In this document: piece after piece, positions 3,503 to 63,402 of the stretch
Layout: the number at the start of each line of letters is the position of its first letter
How positions within the stretch are numbered: the first letter of the stretch is position 1
Assembly (NCBI GenBank): GCA_023397675.1
Contig: JAEWTV010000128.1
Coordinates: 76,900-140,899, forward strand
Direction of reading: 5' to 3'
DNA: 64,000 bases
From: Bacillota bacterium
Lineage (GTDB): Bacteria > Bacillota > Clostridia > Acetivibrionales > JANLFN01
Notes under the pieces: model-generated
Database searches by the model: none
What the model was told of the DNA's origin: nothing
Seen by the model: only the letters and a program-made list of their open reading frames with translations
Program-made: the position numbers and the translations under genes

Positions 3503-4093
3503 ATGCTAAATTATATATGGTTCGGACTGCTTGTTTTAGGCTTTACAGTTGGTGCAATGAACGGAAAACTTGATGAGGTTACACATGCGGCTATAAGTGC
3601 AGCAGGAATTGCGGTGGAATTGTGCATAGGCCTTCTCGGCGTGATGTGCCTTTGGACCGGCTTGATGGCAATAGCAGATAAAAGCGGACTTGTAAGATTT
3701 ATAGCAAAATTGGTTCGGCCTGTTATGAGGCTTCTTTTTTCGGAAATTCCAAAAGGTCATCCGGCTTTGGGAGCTATTGTGATGAATCTTGTGGCAAATT
3801 TTTTCGGGTTGGGAAATGCGGCTACTCCACTTGGAATAAAGGCAATGGGAGAGCTACAGAAAATTAATAAGAATAAAAACACTGCCACCAATTCAATGAG
3901 TATGTTCCTTGTGCTTAATACAGCTGCTTTCCAACTGGTTCCTGCAACTATTATTGCTCTTAGAACGTCGGCAGGTTCATCAAACCCTACTGATATAATC
4001 GTTCCAATATGGATTGCATCGCTGTGCGCAACCGTTGTGGGGGTAATTGCCGCGAAGCTAATGGCAGCTGCAACACCAAACAAACTGAGGTAG
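3503..4093 (+). CDS. spmA: Spore maturation protein A (nucleoside-recognition/Gate domain membrane protein)
   Basis: MLNYIWFGLLVLG.. is polytopic and similar to SpmA, and it is paired with spmB immediately downstream. ATG 3503 is preferred over the track start. Confidence 0.8.
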   Translation: MLNYIWFGLLVLGFTVGAMNGKLDEVTHAAISAAGIAVELCIGLLGVMCLWTGLMAIADKSGLVRFIAKLVRPVMRLLFSEIPKGHPALGAIVMNLVANFFGLGNAATPLGIKAMGELQKINKNKNTATNSMSMFLVLNTAAFQLVPATIIALRTSAGSSNPTDIIVPIWIASLCATVVGVIAAKLMAAATPNKLR

Positions 4094-4096
4094 ATA

Positions 4097-4633
4097 ATGG
4101 AGCTTTTCAAATCAATTTCCGTATATGCTATACCTGCAATATTTCTAATAATCCTTATTGCAGGTATCTATAAAAATGTGAAGGTATATGATGTTTTTGT
4201 TGAAGGTGCCAAGGAAGGTATTTCAACAGTTATCAGAATTCTGCCGTCCCTAGTGGGGCTGTTGGTAGCTGTGGCAGTGTTCAGAGCTTCAGGTGCTCTT
4301 GATTTGATTGTCTATGCACTAAAGCCACTTGCGTCCCTGTTGTCAATTCCATCAGATGTTGTTCCCCTTGCTATTTTAAGGCCTGTTTCTGGAAGCGCTT
4401 CTCTGGCTTTGGTATCTGATATTATAAAGACCAATGGCCCCGATTCTTTTGTTGGAAGACTTGCATCAGTAATGATGGGCTCCACTGAAACTATTTTTTA
4501 TACGCTAGCCGTTTACTTTGGTTCAGTAGGTATTAAAAATATAAGATACACACTGGTTGCTGCACTTATTGCCGACCTGACAAGTGTAATTGCATCGGTG
4601 TGGGCATGTACACTGTTTTTCGGCAGAGGATGA
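4097..4633 (+). CDS. spmB: Spore maturation protein B
   Basis: 178-aa membrane protein starting 4 nt after spmA, the typical spmAB pair. Confidence 0.8.
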   Translation: MELFKSISVYAIPAIFLIILIAGIYKNVKVYDVFVEGAKEGISTVIRILPSLVGLLVAVAVFRASGALDLIVYALKPLASLLSIPSDVVPLAILRPVSGSASLALVSDIIKTNGPDSFVGRLASVMMGSTETIFYTLAVYFGSVGIKNIRYTLVAALIADLTSVIASVWACTLFFGRG

Positions 4634-4764: not shown

Positions 4765-6735
4765 ATGAGCGGCAAGAAGTTTTATATTACTACACCGATA
4801 TATTATCCAAGCGATAAACTACATATAGGTCATTCGTATACTACCGTTGCGGCAGATGCAATGGCAAGGTACAAAAGGCTCAAGGGTTATGACGTAATGT
4901 TTTTGACCGGAACCGATGAGCATGGTCAAAAAATACAAAGAAAAGCAGAACAGCGTGGTATTACTCCAAAACAGTATGTTGATGAAATTGTAGACGGTAT
5001 AAAAAAGCTTTGGAAGCTTATGAAGATAACAAATGACAAGTTCATACGTACAACTGATAAATTTCATGAAGATGCTATACAAAAAATATTTAAGAAGCTT
5101 TATGATCAGGGGGATATATATAAGGGTGCTTATGAGGGCTGGTACTGTACACCATGTGAATCCTTCTGGACAAAGACTCAGCTTGTAGACGGGAAATGCC
5201 CCGATTGTGGTTGTGATGTTGAGCTTACAAAAGAAGAAAGCTACTTTTTCAAGCTGTCCAAGTATCAGGACAAGCTCATAGAGTATATAGAAAGCCACCC
5301 TGATTTTATACAGCCGGTTTCAAGAAAGAATGAGATGATAAATAATTTTCTTAAACCAGGTCTTGAAGATCTTTGTGTTTCTAGGACAACCTTCAATTGG
5401 GGTATTCCGGTTTCGTTTGATGAAAAACATGTAGTATATGTATGGATTGATGCTCTTTCCAACTACATTACTGCACAGGGGTATCTTTCTGAAGATGATT
5501 CGGATTATAGAAAATTCTGGCCGGCAGATGTACAGCTTGTGGGAAAGGAAATTGTACGTTTTCACACTATCATTTGGCCTGCAATGCTTATGGCCCTCGA
5601 TGAGCCTATGCCCAAGCAGGTATACGGACATGGCTGGCTGCTTCTTGAAGGCGGTAAAATGTCAAAATCAAAGGGAAATGTTGTTGATCCGGTAATTCTT
5701 GTAGAAAAATACGGTCTTGATGCAATAAGGTACTTCCTTTTGAGAGAAGTGCCCTTCGGTTCAGATGGAGTGTTCTCAAATGAGGCTTTAATAAACAGGA
5801 TAAATTCTGACCTTGCCAACGATCTTGGAAATTTGGTGAGCAGGACTGTTGCAATGGTTGATAAATATTTCGGAGGTACAATTCCACAGGATAAAATAGC
5901 TGGTGATTTTGATGATGACCTTAAGAAAATGGTAATGGAGACACCATCTAAAGTAGATGAACTGATGGATAAGCTTCAGTTCAGCATGGCACTTACAGAA
6001 ATATGGAAAGTAATATCCAGGGTTAATAAGTATATAGATGAAACAATGCCGTGGGTTCTTGCAAAGGATGAAGCAAACCTCCCAAGGCTTGCAGCTGTAA
6101 TGTATAACCTTGTAGAAAGCATAAGAATTATATCAATATTAATTCAGCCCTTTATGCCTGAAACACCAGAAAAAATATGGGCTCAGCTGGGTTTGGACAA
6201 ATATCCCGAAGTTCTTAAGTGGGAAAGCACCGAAAAGTGGGGCGGTTATCCTGAAGGTGCTTCGGTAAGTAAAGGTGAAGTTATTTTCCCAAGGATAGAT
6301 ATAAAAAAGGAGCTTGAAGAGATAGAAAAGCTTACTGCCAATGCAGCCGCAAAGGAAAAGACTACAGAAAAGAATGTTAATGCAGCGCAAAAGAATGAGA
6401 CAAAAGCAGAAGGCATCATAACAATAGAAGATTTTGCAAAACTGGATCTTAGGGTCGCTAAGGTACTTGAGGCTGAAAAAGTTGAAGGTTCAGACAAGCT
6501 TCTTAAATTGCAGCTTGAACTTGGGGACGAAAGACGTCAGGTTGTTTCCGGTATAGCAAAATATTATGCTCCACAGGATATTATAGGAAAGAGCGTATTA
6601 ATGGTTGCCAATTTAAAACCTGTAAAGCTTAAGGGAATAGAGTCACAAGGCATGATACTCGCAGCTTCCAATGGAGACGAACTTGTACTTGCAACTGTTG
6701 ACGGTAGCATAAACAGCGGCAGCAAGGTTAGTTAG
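4765..6735 (+). CDS. metG: Methionine--tRNA ligase with a C-terminal tRNA-binding (EMAP/Trbp111-like) domain
   Basis: Class I signatures P-S-D-K-L-HIGH and KMSKS, plus a CxxC..CxxC zinc knuckle. AGGAGG lies 8 nt upstream of ATG 4765. Confidence 0.95.
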   Translation: MSGKKFYITTPIYYPSDKLHIGHSYTTVAADAMARYKRLKGYDVMFLTGTDEHGQKIQRKAEQRGITPKQYVDEIVDGIKKLWKLMKITNDKFIRTTDKFHEDAIQKIFKKLYDQGDIYKGAYEGWYCTPCESFWTKTQLVDGKCPDCGCDVELTKEESYFFKLSKYQDKLIEYIESHPDFIQPVSRKNEMINNFLKPGLEDLCVSRTTFNWGIPVSFDEKHVVYVWIDALSNYITAQGYLSEDDSDYRKFWPADVQLVGKEIVRFHTIIWPAMLMALDEPMPKQVYGHGWLLLEGGKMSKSKGNVVDPVILVEKYGLDAIRYFLLREVPFGSDGVFSNEALINRINSDLANDLGNLVSRTVAMVDKYFGGTIPQDKIAGDFDDDLKKMVMETPSKVDELMDKLQFSMALTEIWKVISRVNKYIDETMPWVLAKDEANLPRLAAVMYNLVESIRIISILIQPFMPETPEKIWAQLGLDKYPEVLKWESTEKWGGYPEGASVSKGEVIFPRIDIKKELEEIEKLTANAAAKEKTTEKNVNAAQKNETKAEGIITIEDFAKLDLRVAKVLEAEKVEGSDKLLKLQLELGDERRQVVSGIAKYYAPQDIIGKSVLMVANLKPVKLKGIESQGMILAASNGDELVLATVDGSINSGSKVS

Positions 6736-30864: not shown

Positions 30865-31008
30865 CATACCTATCACCTTCTCTTCCAACGCTTACGGGAT
30901 TAGCTGACGGATTCGGATCGAAAGAGTTTAACCCTACCTGACCAACAACAGTCAGGATTCACCCCAATTACCTGGTTCTCCCGCTCTTAAACAAGATTAA
31001 GCGCGCTT
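30865..31008 (-). promoter_or_regulatory. ydaO/yuaA-class c-di-AMP riboswitch aptamer
   Basis: Minus-strand motifs GCUUAAUC (31001-30994), GAGCGGGAGAACCA (30985-30972), GGGGUGAAUCC (30964-30954) and CCGAAUCCGUCAGCUAAUCCCGUAAGCG (30915-30888). These match the conserved blocks of the ydaO motif as I recall them. Confidence 0.8.
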
Positions 31009-31319
31009 ATAATATTATGTTTTTAATCCATATAATAATATATTCATAGACAAGTTGAATAAATTACAATATGTAAAAATATTATACACATGTTATGTCA
31101 TTTACTCAAATATTGCCCTATGAAACTATTACACAGCATTTAATACTATAGACGAAGATATTTATCTAAAGTTTCATATGAATAAACTTTTTCTTTTGGA
31201 TATATATTCTCGAATGATTTCCTTCTAAAACTTGAAGTTGGTGTTCTTAAATAGTAAAATATGAAATATACTTTTATAGAATTGGGGTCTTAGGCTTTTT
31301 AGCCGGTGAGGAGATATAT

Positions 31320-58457: not shown

Positions 58458-59162
58458 TTGAACTACATTGATATTATTGTGATAGCGGTTATTATTGGTT
58501 TTGCCTTTTTTGGCATGAAAACAGGGTTCTTGCTTTCGGCATATAGAATCGCATCCTTTTTCCTGTCAATCTTTCTTGCAATTAAGCTATATCCTATATT
58601 TTCAAAACTCATGCAAAAAACATTCATTTTTACCAGTATAAGAAATTCGATCTATGGAAGTCTTGTTAAACAATCTCCAGAGGCAGCAGGGCAGGTAAAA
58701 CAGGTTGCTGCCGACACTGTAATCAGTAATATGAATATGCCTGGCTTCCTCAAGCCTGTGGTAAGAAATACGGTAGTGGATAAAATTGATCCGACAAAGC
58801 TTATTGATACATCAAAGGTTATGGGTACGGTAAGTGATGCATTGGCAAAAATAGTTATGGATGTATTAAGCCTTATTCTCCTTTACATACTTATTAGAGT
58901 GGCTCTCGTATTCTTCAAATTTGTAATAAAGGGCCTTACAAAGCTTCCGATTCTAAAGCAGGTAAACAATCTTGGCGGATTCATTCTTGGCGCAGTAGAA
59001 GGCGTTCTTGCCCTCTATATCGCATTTGCTTTAATTACTTTGTTCCATACCTCCGGTGGAATGGCCGGTTTATTTACAAGCATTGACAACTCCCTTATTG
59101 CCAGGACTTTTTATGAGCATAACTTTATTGTAAATTGGATGTTCCCGAGCAAGGGAGCGTAG
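58458..59162 (+). CDS. cvpA: CvpA family membrane protein
   Basis: N-terminus NYIDIIVIAVIIGFAFFGMKTGF and a four-TM organisation typical of CvpA. TTG start after GGGGG. Confidence 0.7.
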   Translation: MNYIDIIVIAVIIGFAFFGMKTGFLLSAYRIASFFLSIFLAIKLYPIFSKLMQKTFIFTSIRNSIYGSLVKQSPEAAGQVKQVAADTVISNMNMPGFLKPVVRNTVVDKIDPTKLIDTSKVMGTVSDALAKIVMDVLSLILLYILIRVALVFFKFVIKGLTKLPILKQVNNLGGFILGAVEGVLALYIAFALITLFHTSGGMAGLFTSIDNSLIARTFYEHNFIVNWMFPSKGA

Positions 59163-59164
59163 TA

Positions 59165-59242
59165 AGTTTACAGTTGGCAATGTACAATGTACAGTTAACT
59201 GCTTATTTAAGTGTACAGTTGATAATGTACAAATTACAGTTA
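59165..59242 (+). repeat. Array A: two tandem 33-bp modules (A1 59165-59197, A2 59210-59242) with TGTACAGTT boxes, plus orientation
   Basis: ACAGTT starts at 59170, 59191, 59215 and 59236 (spacing 21/24/21). The module reads AGTKTACAGTTRRYAATGTACAAWKTACAGTTA. Confidence 0.85.
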
Positions 59243-59390
59243 CAAAACTGCAAAAAGAGTTAATTGACAAAACCTAATACTCTATAATTAATAGTTCAAG
59301 GAATATTCCAAAATCTGTTTTAATGTTAAACTTTGAGTTTCCCTCAAACTATAACACTAACTATGTTTTTAACTATAATTGTACAGTGTA

Positions 59391-59511
59391 TTTTTGCACT
59401 GTATACTGCTCTTTGCTTTTAACTGTAAACCATAAACTGTACACTATCTTTTGCACTGTGCACTGTCTTTGCTTTTAACTGTACATTGTAAATTGTAAAC
59501 TGTACACTATT
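59391..59511 (+). repeat. Array B: tandem ~58/62-bp duplication carrying the same module in inverted orientation
   Basis: B1 is 59391-59448 and B2 is 59449-59511 (TTTTGCACTGT..CTTTGCTTTTAACTGTA..AAACTGTACACTAT). B2 59476-59508 matches module D1 at 31/33 positions. Confidence 0.85.
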
Positions 59512-59632
59512 ATGTATGTTAATGAAAACAATCAATGAGTCTTTTTAAATATTAATGAATTCTGCCTTTTGCTGCCATGTTATAGACAATTAATGTGTTA
59601 GCTAGTAAAATTAAAATACAAACACTAAATTT

Positions 59633-59653
59633 ATAGCCGGATAATCCGGCTAT
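59633..59653 (+). other. Hairpin in the ilvD leader (possible weak terminator/attenuator)
   Basis: ATAGCCGGA/TCCGGCTAT 9-bp stem with a 3-nt loop, followed by TATTATA rather than a clean U-tract. Confidence 0.3.
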
Positions 59654-59705
59654 TATTATACCTGTAAGATTAAGTCAAAAGTTTTTATAGAAGGTGGTAA
59701 ATGCC

Positions 59706-61364
59706 ATGCGAAGTGATACAGTAAAAAAAGGAATTGAACGTGCACCGCATAGATCGCTCTTTAAAGCAATGGGATATACGGATGAAGAAATCAGCAGGCC
59801 TCTCATTGGCGTAGTCAACTCAAAAAGTGAGATAATTCCGGGGCACATAAATCTGGATAAAATAGCTGAAGCGGTTAAAGCCGGAATCAGGATGGCCGGG
59901 GGGACTCCAATAGAATTTGGAGCTATAGGAGTGTGTGATGGAATTGCAATGGGTCATACCGGTATGAAATACTCCCTTGCAACCAGAGAATTGATTGCTG
60001 ATTCCTGTGAAGCGATGGGAATGGCCCACAGCTTTGATGGGATGGTTTTTATACCCAACTGTGACAAGATAGTTCCCGGTATGATAATGGCAGCCGCAAG
60101 AATAAATGTACCCTCTGTTGTAATAAGCGGGGGACCGATGCTTTCAGTGAACCGTAATGGAAAACAGCTTGATTTTAACAGTATGATGGAAGCTGTTGGC
60201 GCTGTTAAAGCGGGGAAAATGACTGAAGAGGAAATGTGTGACCTTGAAAACCATGCCTGCCCAGGCTGCGGTTCATGCTCAGGTATGTTTACGGCAAATT
60301 CCATGAACTGCTTGACAGAGGTCTTGGGAATGGGGCTTACGGGCAATGGTACAATTCCGGCGGTTTATGCAGAAAGGATACGTCTTGCTAAAACAGCAGG
60401 TATGAAGGTTATGGAATTGGTGGAAAAAAACATCAGACCTTCAGATATCCTTACACAAAAGGCTTTCCAAAATGCATTGACTGTTGATATGGCTCTTGGA
60501 TGCTCTACAAATTCGGTACTTCACTTGCCCGCAATTGCCAATGAGGTTGGAATAGAAATTAACCTTGATATTATAAATGAAATTAGTGCTAGGGTTCCAA
60601 ACCTATGCAAGCTCTCACCGGCAGGACAACATCATATACAGGATTTATATACTGCAGGTGGTGTTCAGGCCGTGATGAAGGAGCTGTCCAAAAAGAATCT
60701 TCTTCACCTTGACCTGATAACAGCTACAGGTAAAAAAGTTGGTGAAAACATAGAGAATGCAAAGGTTCTTGATAATGAAGTCATAAGGGATATAGACAAT
60801 CCTTACAGCACAACCGGGGGGATAGCAGTCCTCCGTGGGAATATAGCTCCAGATGGGGCTGTTGTAAAACGTTCTGCCGTAGCTAAGGAAATGCTGGCTC
60901 ATAAAGGGCCTGCAAGGGTTTTTGATTCAGAAGATGACGCCATTGAAGCAATTTATAACGGAAAAATTATTAAAGGCGACGTTATAGTAATACGTTACGA
61001 AGGTCCAAAAGGTGGTCCTGGAATGAGAGAAATGCTTGGACCCACTTCGGCTATAGCTGGGATGGGATTGGATAAGGATGTTGCCTTAATTACAGATGGA
61101 AGGTTTTCTGGGGCATCGAGAGGGGCATCAATAGGGCATGTTTCACCTGAAGCTATGGAAGGCGGTCCTGTTGCATTTATTAAAGAAGGAGATATTGTAA
61201 GTATAGATATACCAGCCGGCAAGCTTGATATAGAAGTAAGCAGTGAAGAAATTGAAAGAAGAATGAAGGAATGGAAAGCTCCGCAGCCTAAAATAACATG
61301 GGGATACCTTGGAAGGTATGCAAGACAGGTATCATCCGCAAGCACAGGAGCGGTATTAAAATAG
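59706..61364 (+). CDS. ilvD: Dihydroxy-acid dehydratase
   Basis: [19 protein letters not shown]-terminus, CDKIVPGM and the Fe-S ligand region. AAGGTGG lies 8 nt upstream of ATG 59706. Confidence 0.95.
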
Positions 61365-61367
61365 TTA

Positions 61368-61470
61368 ATAGTGTACAATTTACAGATTACGGTTAAAAGC
61401 TAAATTACAAGTTTTCTGTTAGAGCAAGGTATTGTACATTATAAAAGATGTTATACATTTTGCAGTTAAA
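61368..61470 (+). repeat. Array C: degenerate plus-orientation TGTACA/ACAGTT-like boxes directly after the ilvD stop
   Basis: AGTGTACAATTTACAGATTA, ATTACAAGTT, ATTGTACATTA, TGCAGTTAAA. It resembles array A only loosely. Confidence 0.5.
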
Positions 61471-61642
61471 TTTAAGATTAGCGTTTGTTAAAGCGATTTT
61501 GAAAGTTAAAGTTAATAATAAACATTATTGATATATGTAAAATATCCACTCAATTGGTTGTTTAATAAAAATAAATACTCAATTAACTATAAGTTTTGAG
61601 ATATTAACTAAAATTAAGTATTAATATTTTTTTATACGCAGT

Positions 61643-61713
61643 TAACTGTACCTTGTACATTATCAATTGTACACTTACTATAACTGTACATTGTACATTG
61701 TTAACTGTACACT
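61643..61713 (-). repeat. Array D: two tandem 33-bp modules (D2 61643-61675, D1 61681-61713) in minus orientation, ending 7 nt before the ilvB SD
   Basis: The reverse complement of D1 matches A1 at 30/33 positions, including an exact 20-mer CAATGTACAATGTACAGTTA. The reverse complement of D2 matches A2 at 30/33. Confidence 0.85.
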
Positions 61714-61734
61714 CGAAGAAGGGGTGGTGTGGTT

Positions 61735-63402
61735 ATGAAGTTGAATGGTTCTGAGATTTTAATGGAATGTCTGCTGGAACAAGGAGTTGATACGGTCTTT
61801 GGGTTCCCAGGCGGTGCTGTGCTGAATATATATGATGCTTTATATAAGTATAAGGATAAGATAAGACATATCTTAACTTCACATGAACAGGGTGCGGCGC
61901 ATGCTGCAGACGGTTATGCCAGAGCTACTGGAAAGGTTGGCGTTTGTATAGCCACATCAGGCCCGGGTGCAACAAACCTTGTTACTGGAATAGCAACTGC
62001 TTACATGGATTCAATTCCGATGGTTGCCATAACAGGTCAGGTAGCTACAAGCCTGCTGGGAAAGGATTCTTTCCAGGAAGTTGATATTACAGGCATAACA
62101 ATGCCTATTACAAAGCATAATTATATTGTAAAAAATGTTGAAAAGCTTGCGGATACAGTAAGGCAGGCGTTTATAATAGCAGCTGAAGGAAGACCCGGCC
62201 CTGTGCTTATAGATGTCTGCAAGGATGTAAGTGCAGCTTTCACCGAGTATACTCCTAAAAAGGCAGAAAAGCCCCCGGTACTTGAAATAGGTGTAAGTGA
62301 TTATGAAATAGAGAAAGCAGCTGAGACCATTAATGGGTCTAAAAAGCCTTTCATACTTTCTGGTGGTGGGGTTGCTATCTCAGGTGCACACGAAGAGGTG
62401 CTTATGCTTGCTGAAAAGGCAGGTATTCCAGTCTCGACAACTCTTATGGGACTTGGATCATTCCCTGGTAACCATGAGCTGTTTACGGGCCTAATGGGTA
62501 TGCACGGGACTAAAACTTCCAATCTTGCAGTTTCAGAAGCTGATCTGTTTATCGCAATAGGAGCCCGGTTCAGTGACAGGGTCATAAGTAATGTAAACAA
62601 GTTTGCGCCTAAGGCGGAAATTATGCACATTGATATAGATGCTGCTGAAATTGGTAAGAATATTAAAGTAAATCATCCTCTTGTAGGAAATATTAAGATG
62701 ATTCTTCAAGAACTAATTGCCAAGGTTGAAAAGAATAGCAGGGCTGAGTGGGTGGAGAAGGCAAATGATTGGAAGCGTGCCTATCCCTTGAAATCAGAAT
62801 GGAATGGCGAACTTAAGCCTCAGTTTATAATCGAGAAAATTTATGAAGTGACCCGCGGAGACGCCCTCATAACAACTGAAGTTGGACAGAATCAGCTTTG
62901 GGCTGCACAGTTCTATAAATATACAAAACCCAGGCAGTATATTTCTTCAGGCGGCCTCGGAACAATGGGTTTTGGTCTTGGAGCATGCATAGGTGCACAA
63001 ATAGGCAGACCTGATAAAAAAGTAATAAATGTTGCCGGCGACGGGAGTTTCAGAATGAACTTGACAGAACTTGCAACAGCTGTAGAATATAAAGTGCCGG
63101 TAATAATTGCTATTTTAAACAACAGGGTTTTGGGAATGGTAAGACAGTGGCAGGAATTATTCTATGCAGGAAGGTATTCGGCGACTACTATTGATAGGGG
63201 TACAGACTTTGTAGCTCTCGCAAAGGCTTTTGGGGCTGAAGGTATAAATGTTTCAAAACCTGAGGAAGTAGCTCCTGCGTTGGAAAAGGCATTAGCCTCT
63301 GTTGATGTTCCGGTAGTTATAAATTTTGAAATAGGTATGAACGAAAAGGTATTTCCGATTGTACCTCCCGGCTCACCAATATATGAAATTATTGAAGGGT
63401 AA
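61735..63402 (+). CDS. ilvB: Acetolactate synthase large (catalytic) subunit, biosynthetic type
   Basis: ThDP-enzyme N-terminus GSEILMECLLEQGVDTVFGFPGG and ThDP motif GDGSF.MN..EL.T. GGGGTGG lies 7 nt upstream of ATG 61735. Confidence 0.93.
   Translation: MKLNGSEILMECLLEQGVDTVFGFPGGAVLNIYDALYKYKDKIRHILTSHEQGAAHAADGYARATGKVGVCIATSGPGATNLVTGIATAYMDSIPMVAITGQVATSLLGKDSFQEVDITGITMPITKHNYIVKNVEKLADTVRQAFIIAAEGRPGPVLIDVCKDVSAAFTEYTPKKAEKPPVLEIGVSDYEIEKAAETINGSKKPFILSGGGVAISGAHEEVLMLAEKAGIPVSTTLMGLGSFPGNHELFTGLMGMHGTKTSNLAVSEADLFIAIGARFSDRVISNVNKFAPKAEIMHIDIDAAEIGKNIKVNHPLVGNIKMILQELIAKVEKNSRAEWVEKANDWKRAYPLKSEWNGELKPQFIIEKIYEVTRGDALITTEVGQNQLWAAQFYKYTKPRQYISSGGLGTMGFGLGACIGAQIGRPDKKVINVAGDGSFRMNLTELATAVEYKVPVIIAILNNRVLGMVRQWQELFYAGRYSATTIDRGTDFVALAKAFGAEGINVSKPEEVAPALEKALASVDVPVVINFEIGMNEKVFPIVPPGSPIYEIIEG

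Follow-up and report, generated by a model that had tools for sequence, protein, structure and literature searches.

In the present study, a 64-kb window (the whole stretch of DNA analysed, part of a 612-kb metagenomic contig from a Bacillota bacterium) was re-examined for the repeated boxes that lie in the spacer between ilvD and ilvB. A previous sequence-only reading of this DNA had described two well-preserved inverted modules, D2 and D1, directly before the ilvB Shine-Dalgarno sequence (SD), together with similar boxes around ilvD, and had implied that they constitute an operator dedicated to the ilv genes. The results obtained herein suggest that D1, D2 and their partners are probably a local instance of a dispersed, hypervariable family of intergenic modules built from heptamers, rather than a switch dedicated to ilv. 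The anatomy of the arrays, their hypervariability, their dispersal and their lack of ilv specificity were all shown directly. A dedicated ilv switch is unlikely because the modules change fast and lie between unrelated genes in many bacteria, and the implied operator was not borne out: the boxes are replaced between strains that are 99% identical, their neighbours elsewhere are unrelated, and the mismatches between their arms show no preference for G·U. As regards ilv regulation, the feature is ordinary.

Heptamer modules in the two spacers flanking ilvD

First, the boxes are real and share one build. The ilvD gene occupies 59706-61364, with its stop codon TAG at 61362-61364, and according to direct reading and the gene calls it is followed by a 370-nucleotide (nt) spacer and the ilvB ATG at 61735. 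On re-reading, the letters quoted for the two inverted modules were exact, both for D2 (61643-61675, minus strand, 33 nt, heptamer-built, 53.3 bits), which reads TAACTGTACCTTGTACATTATCAATTGTACACT on the plus strand, and for D1 (61681-61713, minus strand, 55.3 bits), which reads TAACTGTACATTGTACATTGTTAACTGTACACT. Array D does stop 7 nt short of the ilvB SD, as direct reading showed: D1 ends at 61713 and is followed by CGAAGAA (7 nt), by the SD GGGGTGG (61721-61727, plus strand) and by the ATG (61735-61737) of the ilvB gene call (61735-63402). At the other end of the spacer, a degenerate forward module (..AGTGTACAATTTACAGATTACGGTTAAAAGCTA) forms array C (61363-61402, plus strand), which starts from the ilvD stop codon and was recognised by a weight matrix (19.7 bits at 61363-61395 and 11.0 bits at 61370-61402), by repeat families (numbered D2, D11, I3, I4, I9 and I11) and by 7-nt periodicity (identity at a 7-nt offset of 0.62). 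The degenerate plus-orientation boxes reported behind the ilvD stop are present, but the quoted strings were shifted by 1-2 nt, with AGTGTACAATTTACAGATTA beginning at 61370 and not at 61368, and with TGCAGTTAAA at 61461-61470. Decayed module remnants (ATTGTACATTATAAA ... TACATTTTGCAGTTAAA; repeat families D3 and I21, assigned to neither strand) lie at 61431-61470. They are followed by the A+T-rich stretch of about 170 bp that had been claimed, a core at 61472-61642, likewise assigned to neither strand, with 81% A+T compared with 62% in the whole window; a single weak promoter-like match (61499-61528, 9 of 12 positions) was found in it.

The cvpA-ilvD spacer repeats this mirrored architecture, as the sequence-only reading had noticed: in both spacers a stop codon is followed by forward modules (arrays A and C), an A+T-rich core, inverted modules (arrays B and D) and the next gene. 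Array A (59165-59242, plus strand) begins 2 nt past the cvpA stop codon (59160-59162) and comprises modules A1 (59165-59197, 53.6 bits) and A2 (59210-59242, 52.4 bits). Array B (59392-59508, minus strand; scores of 12.5, 21.3 and 52.4 bits) includes a degenerate inverted module at 59413-59445 and a well-kept one at 59476-59508, each array B module being preceded by TTTTGCACTGT..CTTTGCTTTTAAC, and it ends 75 nt upstream of the -35 of a promoter-like site of ilvD. The matches reported between modules were reproduced: D1 agrees with the array B module 59476-59508 at 31 of 33 positions, the reverse complement of D1 with A1 at 30 of 33, including the exact 20-mer CAATGTACAATGTACAGTTA, and the reverse complement of D2 with A2 at 30 of 33. 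The spans from the first to the last box, given as 346 and 347 bp, were measured at about 344-347 bp, but this near-equality is not meaningful and appears to be a coincidence, since on alignment of both regions of ~346 bp the A-B and C-D cores were not significantly similar (local alignment z-score of 1.2-1.7). An alignment of the two regions and their orthologues had been proposed as a check; it reproduced the modules, but the cores proved unrelated and the box sequence was not conserved at orthologous sites.

About 4.5 related heptamers (TGTACAR / ACAGTTR, for example in the run TGTACAG TTAACAA TGTACAA TGTACAG TTA) make up each box, a 33-nt module that recurs five times in the window. The arrays consist of four to five related, non-identical heptamers, usually closed by the non-repeat end ACAGTTAAAAG, and not of runs of one perfect or near-perfect heptamer. 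Period 7 was detected by Tandem Repeats Finder at 59178-59193, 59452-59466, 59480-59504 and 61685-61701; the identity at a 7-nt offset was 0.51-0.62 in arrays A-D against 0.26 +/- 0.06 in the window, and values of at least 0.5 were observed only at these four places. The string AACTGTACA occurs eight times in the window against 0.62 expected, and seven of the eight occurrences fall within the two spacers flanking ilvD. The 33-nt weight matrix gave 52-55 bits for five good modules and 11-21 bits for the degenerate ones, with no match elsewhere in the 64 kb and a maximum of 8.8 bits in shuffled sequence. These results confirm that the similarity of the boxes is real and far beyond chance. Single modules are not palindromic, with fold z-scores of -1.3 to +0.2 against shuffled sequence.

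Replacement at a fixed site and dispersal among genomes

Second, the content of this site is hypervariable. Relatives, whose loci are given L-numbers, were fetched around the closest IlvD proteins, and their spacers were then read. The IlvD of the window has 85-86% identity to its counterparts in Ruminiclostridium, Acetivibrio and Anaerobacterium, and the ilvD-ilvB spacer measures 296-389 nt in the array-bearing relatives. In L003 (ilvD with 87% nucleotide identity to the window), GTTGACA/GATGACA forward modules follow the stop codon and one inverted module (TTAACTGTCAACTGTCC..) ends just before the SD. The same layout, composed of GAATTGA modules, was observed in L005, L010, L011 and L012 (ilvD with 89% nucleotide identity to the window and >99% to one another), and a GTTGACA-type spacer was observed in L013, whose ilvD has 98.9% nucleotide identity to that of L005. 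Three unrelated heptamer families occupy one orthologous site in sister species and strains. Between L013 and L005, ilvD and ilvB are 98.9-99% identical overall, yet the array type differs, and the flanks of L013 are ~100% L005-like up to the final ~10 nt of ilvD. An import of the L013 array type by recombination from an L003-like species was considered and rejected; the donor was not L003-like, because the L013 flanks are L005-like right up to the spacer. Smaller changes were also seen: the modules of L003 and L013 differ by single-unit indels (one 8-nt unit). The cvpA-ilvD spacer is equally variable, with TGTACA modules as in the window in L012 and L013, and with forward-only runs of other types that have no inverted partner in L003, L005 and L011; here L005 carries one whole module more than L011. 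A conserved operator is incompatible with these observations, because the site is constant while its content turns over fast enough to differ within a species. In L007 and L008 (IlvD 88% and 86% identical), the ilvD-ilvB spacers are 55 and 31 nt long and contain no arrays. From these comparisons, a spacer of 31-55 nt appears to be ancestral, and the modules would have filled it in the genus of the window.

The borders of the arrays showed further changes. The last codons of ilvD (61353-61364 in the window; 4648-4659 in L003, L005 and L013) shift synonymously with the array type: the gene ends in GTACTTAAATAG with TTGACAG.. in L003 and L013, and in GTATTAAAATAA with TTAAGAATTG.. in L005. Since the last ilvD codons change together with the array type, the replaced segment includes the final few bases of ilvD. 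At cvpA and in L042, a module even covers the stop codon. In L013 (2539-2830), compared with L005 and L012, a peptidase S8 gene stands upstream of ilvD instead of DUF5711-cvpA; synteny breaks at the array region, where inverted TGTACA modules are retained, and the arrays may mark a point of rearrangement.

Third, the modules are dispersed between unrelated genes of other genomes. A scan for TAACTGTACANTGTAMATTG in one genome per species gave 36 matches at 30 loci, against ~9 expected by our estimate for a uniform base composition. Multiple loci per genome were found in Natroniella acetigena, N. sulfidigena and the metagenome-assembled genomes (MAGs) OH_PDB_31, bin149 and Th196P3bin66, and single matches, each amid heptamer arrays, were found in Ruminiclostridium, Lachnospiraceae, Lentimicrobiaceae, Ignavibacteriae, Cytophagales and one cyanobacterium. 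All but two of the 36 matches are intergenic, and 20 of the 34 that were re-found have heptamer-periodic flanks, compared with 3 of 28 matches from an 18-mer scan of metagenomes, which were mostly chance matches, many of them inside open reading frames, and served only as a picture of chance. Zero module matches were obtained in viral contigs, and a phage origin was rejected on this basis. The neighbouring genes, e.g. those for an rRNA methylase, relA-dtd, ftsY, an M23 peptidase, a radical SAM protein and priA/pth, are unrelated to branched-chain amino acids. Between co-directional genes, a forward-sense module lies 5-40 nt past the upstream stop codon in 19 of 23 cases (10 of 12 genomes). The relA-dtd junction of bin149 has the layout of ilvD-ilvB, namely a stop codon, 4 nt, a forward module, a 40-nt loop, an inverted module, 4 nt and the SD; an identical 33-mer occurs at two bin149 loci, with 94% identity to the window modules. 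Moreover, the non-repeat module end ACAGTTAAAA is common to Natroniella, a Lachnospiraceae MAG, bin149, OH_PDB_31 and the window, and the heptamers and the end motif are kept from Halanaerobiales to Clostridia, Bacteroidota and Cyanobacteria.

Several other observations were made at the dispersed copies. In L059 (~640-800), a forward heptamer array directly follows the 3' end of the 16S rRNA (GGATCACCTCCTTTCT) and an inverted array lies ~110 nt later; therefore, modules also occur within the spacer of an rRNA operon (16S-23S). The Natroniella TGTACA arrays sit in tandem units of ~126 nt with many copies per genome (L015, L021-L024, L026, L029, L031, L032, L036, L040 and L043), and these units also hold the heptamer families TATTCAT and CACTGCT and the hairpins GGGTTCTTCGAACCC and AAAAAATC..GATTTTTT. 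A dispersed element of ~110 nt with three G+C-rich hairpins (GAGCCGTGGAATTCCACGGCT, AGTCGGTGAAACCGACT and GCCGTGGGTTTCAACCCACGG), for which no Rfam match was obtained, lies directly behind forward heptamer modules in L005 (2590-2730) and L042 (about 1000-1115, 1960-2080 and 4040-4160). Also, L035, a 5.5-kb contig of an Oscillospiraceae MAG from termite gut with the housekeeping genes rpoZ-like, coaBC, priA and pth, carries forward and inverted heptamer hairpins and a larger shared repeat at both of its ends (120-270 and 5335-5450). Since this contig begins and ends in arrays, arrays probably break assemblies.

Proposed turnover of the arrays and competing explanations

Based on these findings, we propose that the modules filled a spacer formerly of 31-55 nt and now extend from the stop codon up to a point 7 nt short of the SD. 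Turnover would take place at the DNA level, through the gain or loss of single 7-8 nt units or of whole modules, and the whole spacer could be swapped between conspecific strains. The complementarity of the arms would then be a by-product, because one module family is laid down in both orientations. If ilvD and ilvB are co-transcribed, pairing within the ilvDB mRNA would be possible between array C and D1 and between the SD and the 3' end of D1. Should such pairing dampen or tune ilvB translation, the effect would be incidental, limited to this locus and to individual strains, and would not respond to branched-chain amino acids.

Several observations weigh against this explanation. In this genome, arrays were observed only in the two spacers flanking ilvD among the ~74 kb read (the window and the next 10 kb, nusG-rpoC); the dispersal was therefore demonstrated in other genomes, and for this one it is inferred from relatives. 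The putative kinship of OH_PDB_31 to the genus of the window is suggested only by shared repeat families. In addition, both spacers are occupied by arrays in all three sister species, suggesting that something keeps arrays there. Pure slippage explains neither the conservation of the heptamers and the ACAGTTAAAA end across phyla nor the forward-sense bias (19/23 cases, 10/12 genomes), and both hint at a specific factor acting in trans. No transposase, target duplication or recombinase was found at the copies inspected. It is conceivable, at a rather low probability, that the modules represent a discrete cross-phylum element (N x heptamer + ACAGTTAAAAG) read by a conserved trans-acting factor, because they are mRNA-sense right after stop codons and because the heptamers and the end motif are kept across phyla. 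Such a factor, if any, might be an enzyme dedicated to mobilising the modules and directed at gene ends, or a protein that binds RNA or DNA and for which they serve as modular intercistronic insulators or tuners. If this were true, the ilvD-ilvB arrays would set the ratio of ilvD to ilvB expression and would be swapped between strains as a cassette.

The proposed turnover at the DNA level must also be compared with a function of the arrays in RNA. No terminator was predicted in any version of the spacer, and the promoter-like matches in it are weak and inconsistent, with none in the L003 core; over array D there is none on the coding strand and one match on the opposite strand. With neither a terminator nor a consistent promoter in the spacer, the arrays probably lie within the ilvDB mRNA, and an internal promoter or terminator was rejected on the same grounds. 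The ancestral ilvD-ilvB junction is an operon junction, and ilvB would still be transcribed from the promoter-like site upstream of ilvD, with arrays C and D in the mRNA. A functional long-range RNA stem, in which the pairing of C with D loops out ~300 nt, joins the stop codon to the SD and preserves coupling, is a minority possibility; in a variant, the stem would serve as an RNase III site or as a duplex protecting the 3' end of ilvD, and it could also gate ilvB translation. Consistent with such a stem, the minimum-energy fold of the window pairs 61361-61393 with 61677-61708 (C with D1), the arm duplex of the ilvD-ilvB spacer has a z-score of -5.7, and cognate arms form strong duplexes (-32 to -52 kcal/mol, z-scores of -5 to -7), whereas arms of unlike types pair poorly. 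The fold z-score is -8.3 for the A-B region and, for the whole ilvD-ilvB spacer, -2.3 in the window and -3.4 in L003; moreover, the arrays reach exactly from the stop codon to the SD here and in relA-dtd of another genome, and the spacer has no predicted terminator.

However, the mismatches counted over eight arm pairs comprise 10 G·U, 15 A·C and 40 transversions, and selection on the arms at the RNA level was rejected because the G·U and A·C counts are unbiased. The complementarity looks like a by-product of copying at the DNA level, since the mismatches lack a G·U excess. The spacer of the L005 type folds no better than shuffled sequence (z-score of -0.6), and partnerless forward arrays occupy the cvpA-ilvD spacer of L003, L005 and L011. 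Pairing of A with B would require transcripts that read through from cvpA, because array B precedes the ilvD promoter-like site. The pairing of the SD also differs between array types. The sequence-only reading had suggested that a bound protein or an RNA duplex might occlude ilvB, and a duplex is indeed predicted: the D1 end CACUC (61710-61714) would pair with the SD core GGGUG (61722-61726), for which a probability of being unpaired of ~3% was calculated in the window. This predicted helix of 5 bp is weak, and it is not conserved in the other array types, in which the SD is predicted to be 26-74% unpaired, so that occlusion would be a property of the window allele and not of the architecture. 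Occlusion of the SD as a shared property was rejected, since it is predicted for the array type of the window only.

An origin as a miniature inverted-repeat transposable element (MITE), in which each unit of ~346 bp would be a non-autonomous transposon inserted twice beside ilvD with terminal repeats that carry transposase-binding sites, appears improbable. The terminal inverted repeats (inverted pairs I6-I11) around an A+T-rich core of MITE size, the empty sites in more distant relatives and the module copies dispersed in other genomes agree with it, and the module inserted in L005 compared with L011 has CAGTTA at both sides, but this CAGTTA is part of the modules themselves. The two cores of the window are non-homologous (z-score of 1.2-1.7), for which reason two copies of one MITE were rejected, and on reading the outer borders of A-B and C-D neither a direct repeat nor a target-site duplication is visible. 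In addition, modules occur singly, forward-only or with loops of 20 to 280 nt, sister strains carry three module types at one and the same site, the neighbourhoods of the copies inspected revealed no transposase, and viral contigs contained no matches.

An ilv operator, in which a DNA-binding regulator would act on the TGTACA boxes by looping or as a roadblock and place ilvD and ilvB under branched-chain amino-acid control, is very unlikely. Several phased boxes do lie on either side of ilvD, and only there in the 74 kb, and D1 does adjoin the ilvB ribosome-binding site. On the other hand, the box sequence differs at the same site in conspecific strains and sister species, the identical module family stands beside unrelated genes that form no coherent regulon, and relatives with 86-88% IlvD identity have no boxes. 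Array B stops 75 nt short of the -35 in the conserved promoter-like site, and the only promoter-like match that overlaps D is on the opposite strand. Judged by the comparison of genomes, the operator explanation appears largely refuted. A better candidate than the boxes for an ilvD operator or an element of the 5' untranslated region is the palindrome at 59631-59655. It was observed as a hairpin ATAGCCGG-N5-CCGGCTAT behind the promoter-like TAGACA-N17-TAAAAT (59583-59611), ~50 nt before the ilvD ATG, and both the promoter-like site and the palindrome are kept in L003 and L005 and in the array-less L007 and L008, with an invariant stem and a varying loop.

The least probable explanation is an inverton, in which a recombinase acting at the arrays would invert the A+T-rich core and so turn ilvB (or ilvD) on and off: inverted repeats do flank an A+T-rich segment of 170-280 bp, and the core has a weak promoter-like site (61499-61528), but a single orientation was found per type (L001 and L002 for the window type; L005, L010, L011 and L012; a small sample of two and four contigs), the L003 core has no promoter-like site, the arms differ in sequence from strain to strain, as recombinase sites would not, and no recombinase was identified in the partial annotation of the window. 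Several other candidates were dropped. Binding sites of CodY, TnrA, CcpA, Spo0A, LexA and boxA/NusB, as well as back-up stop codons in all frames, were considered, but the sequences did not fit or varied between strains. Avoidance of a restriction site was dropped, with 21 TGTACA outside the arrays against ~20.7 expected for the whole window. With respect to the arrays, Rfam 15 gave nothing at the gathering threshold in the window, three array-bearing loci were also negative, and a permissive search of 59100-61800 returned only chance hits (E = 1.2-2.1, ~19 bits against thresholds of 50-70).

Relation to known repeats and consequences for annotation

Intergenic heptamer repeats have been on record since 1990, the cyanobacterial STRR heptamer repeats having reportedly been described in that year by Mazel and colleagues. 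These and the TAACTGA repeats are the closest known relatives of the present modules, which are arranged like REP doublets. TAACTGA direct repeats occur in Beggiatoaceae, Cyanobacteria and Bacteroidetes, where they occupy intergenic positions, frequently beside start codons; the arrays often include other heptamers as well, and strains differ from one another in steps of 7 nt (MacGregor 2015, PMC4679880); the same paper refers to 'long simple sequence repeats' (Mrazek et al. 2007, as cited in PMC4679880). Heptamer repeats near Nostoc recF/recO influence reporter output (bioRxiv 10.1101/2022.06.06.494920). The arrays described herein resemble STRR and TAACTGA repeats in the 7-nt unit, in the almost exclusively intergenic position, in the mixing of related heptamers within one array, in arrays that often touch a start or stop codon, in the patchy distribution among phyla, in the variation between strains by whole units and in the frequent absence of the array from the closest relatives. 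Moreover, the window unit TAACTGT differs from TAACTGA by one base, and several loci per genome lie by unrelated genes in five or more genomes (the 74 kb read here hold two loci). In contrast, the Clostridia and Halanaerobiales found here are absent from the groups named in the TAACTGA work, the arrays comprise just 4-5 degenerate units and not long runs of a single heptamer, and they form modules of ~33 nt that carry a conserved non-repeat end (ACAGTTAAAAG..CAAAG) and typically occur as forward and inverted pairs.

Other families share only part of this organisation. Like REP/BIME elements and REPIN doublets (Bertels & Rainey 2011, PMC3116915), the modules are short (~33 nt) dispersed extragenic units, commonly just past stop codons inside operons, they form inverted pairs capable of long hairpins, and they evolve fast within a genome. 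Unlike those elements, the single module is non-palindromic and heptamer-built, and the loop reaches 280 nt; no RAYT (Y1) transposase was seen at the array loci inspected. The BOX elements of Streptococcus pneumoniae have the organisation boxA-boxB(n)-boxC. They are likewise modular with a variable number of internal modules (~45 nt in BOX), intergenic, hairpin-capable, co-transcribed with their neighbours and able to alter neighbour expression, the latter two being features of BOX that may apply here. However, the two are unrelated in sequence, BOX modules lack a heptamer period, and BOX has distinct A and C ends, whereas both arms here belong to one module family. In the 5' region of Haemophilus influenzae hmw1A/hmw2A, 7-nt repeats between promoter and start codon vary in copy number among strains and tune expression, partly through RNA structure of the 5' untranslated region and RNase III (PMC8262952, PMC12721329). 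Those are long, perfect tracts of a single unit at contingency loci for surface proteins, unlike the short, mixed arrays in both orientations found here in a biosynthetic operon.

For annotation, these results remove a tempting false lead, as the boxes are not a new regulator of branched-chain amino acids, and comparable arrays of mirrored boxes at other sites should not be annotated as operators. Several new points could make the question of heptamer repeats tractable. First, Clostridia and Halanaerobiales are carriers, with modules of fixed length and a conserved end motif. Second, the modules prefer one strand and the site just after stop codons. Third, modules can expand a tight operon junction about ten-fold, and they are exchanged like cassettes between strains whose flanking genes are ~99% identical. 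Natroniella acetigena is a cultured carrier with many copies. Apart from the arrays, a c-di-AMP riboswitch of the ydaO/yuaA type was observed in the window at 30873-31013 on the minus strand (101.8 bits).

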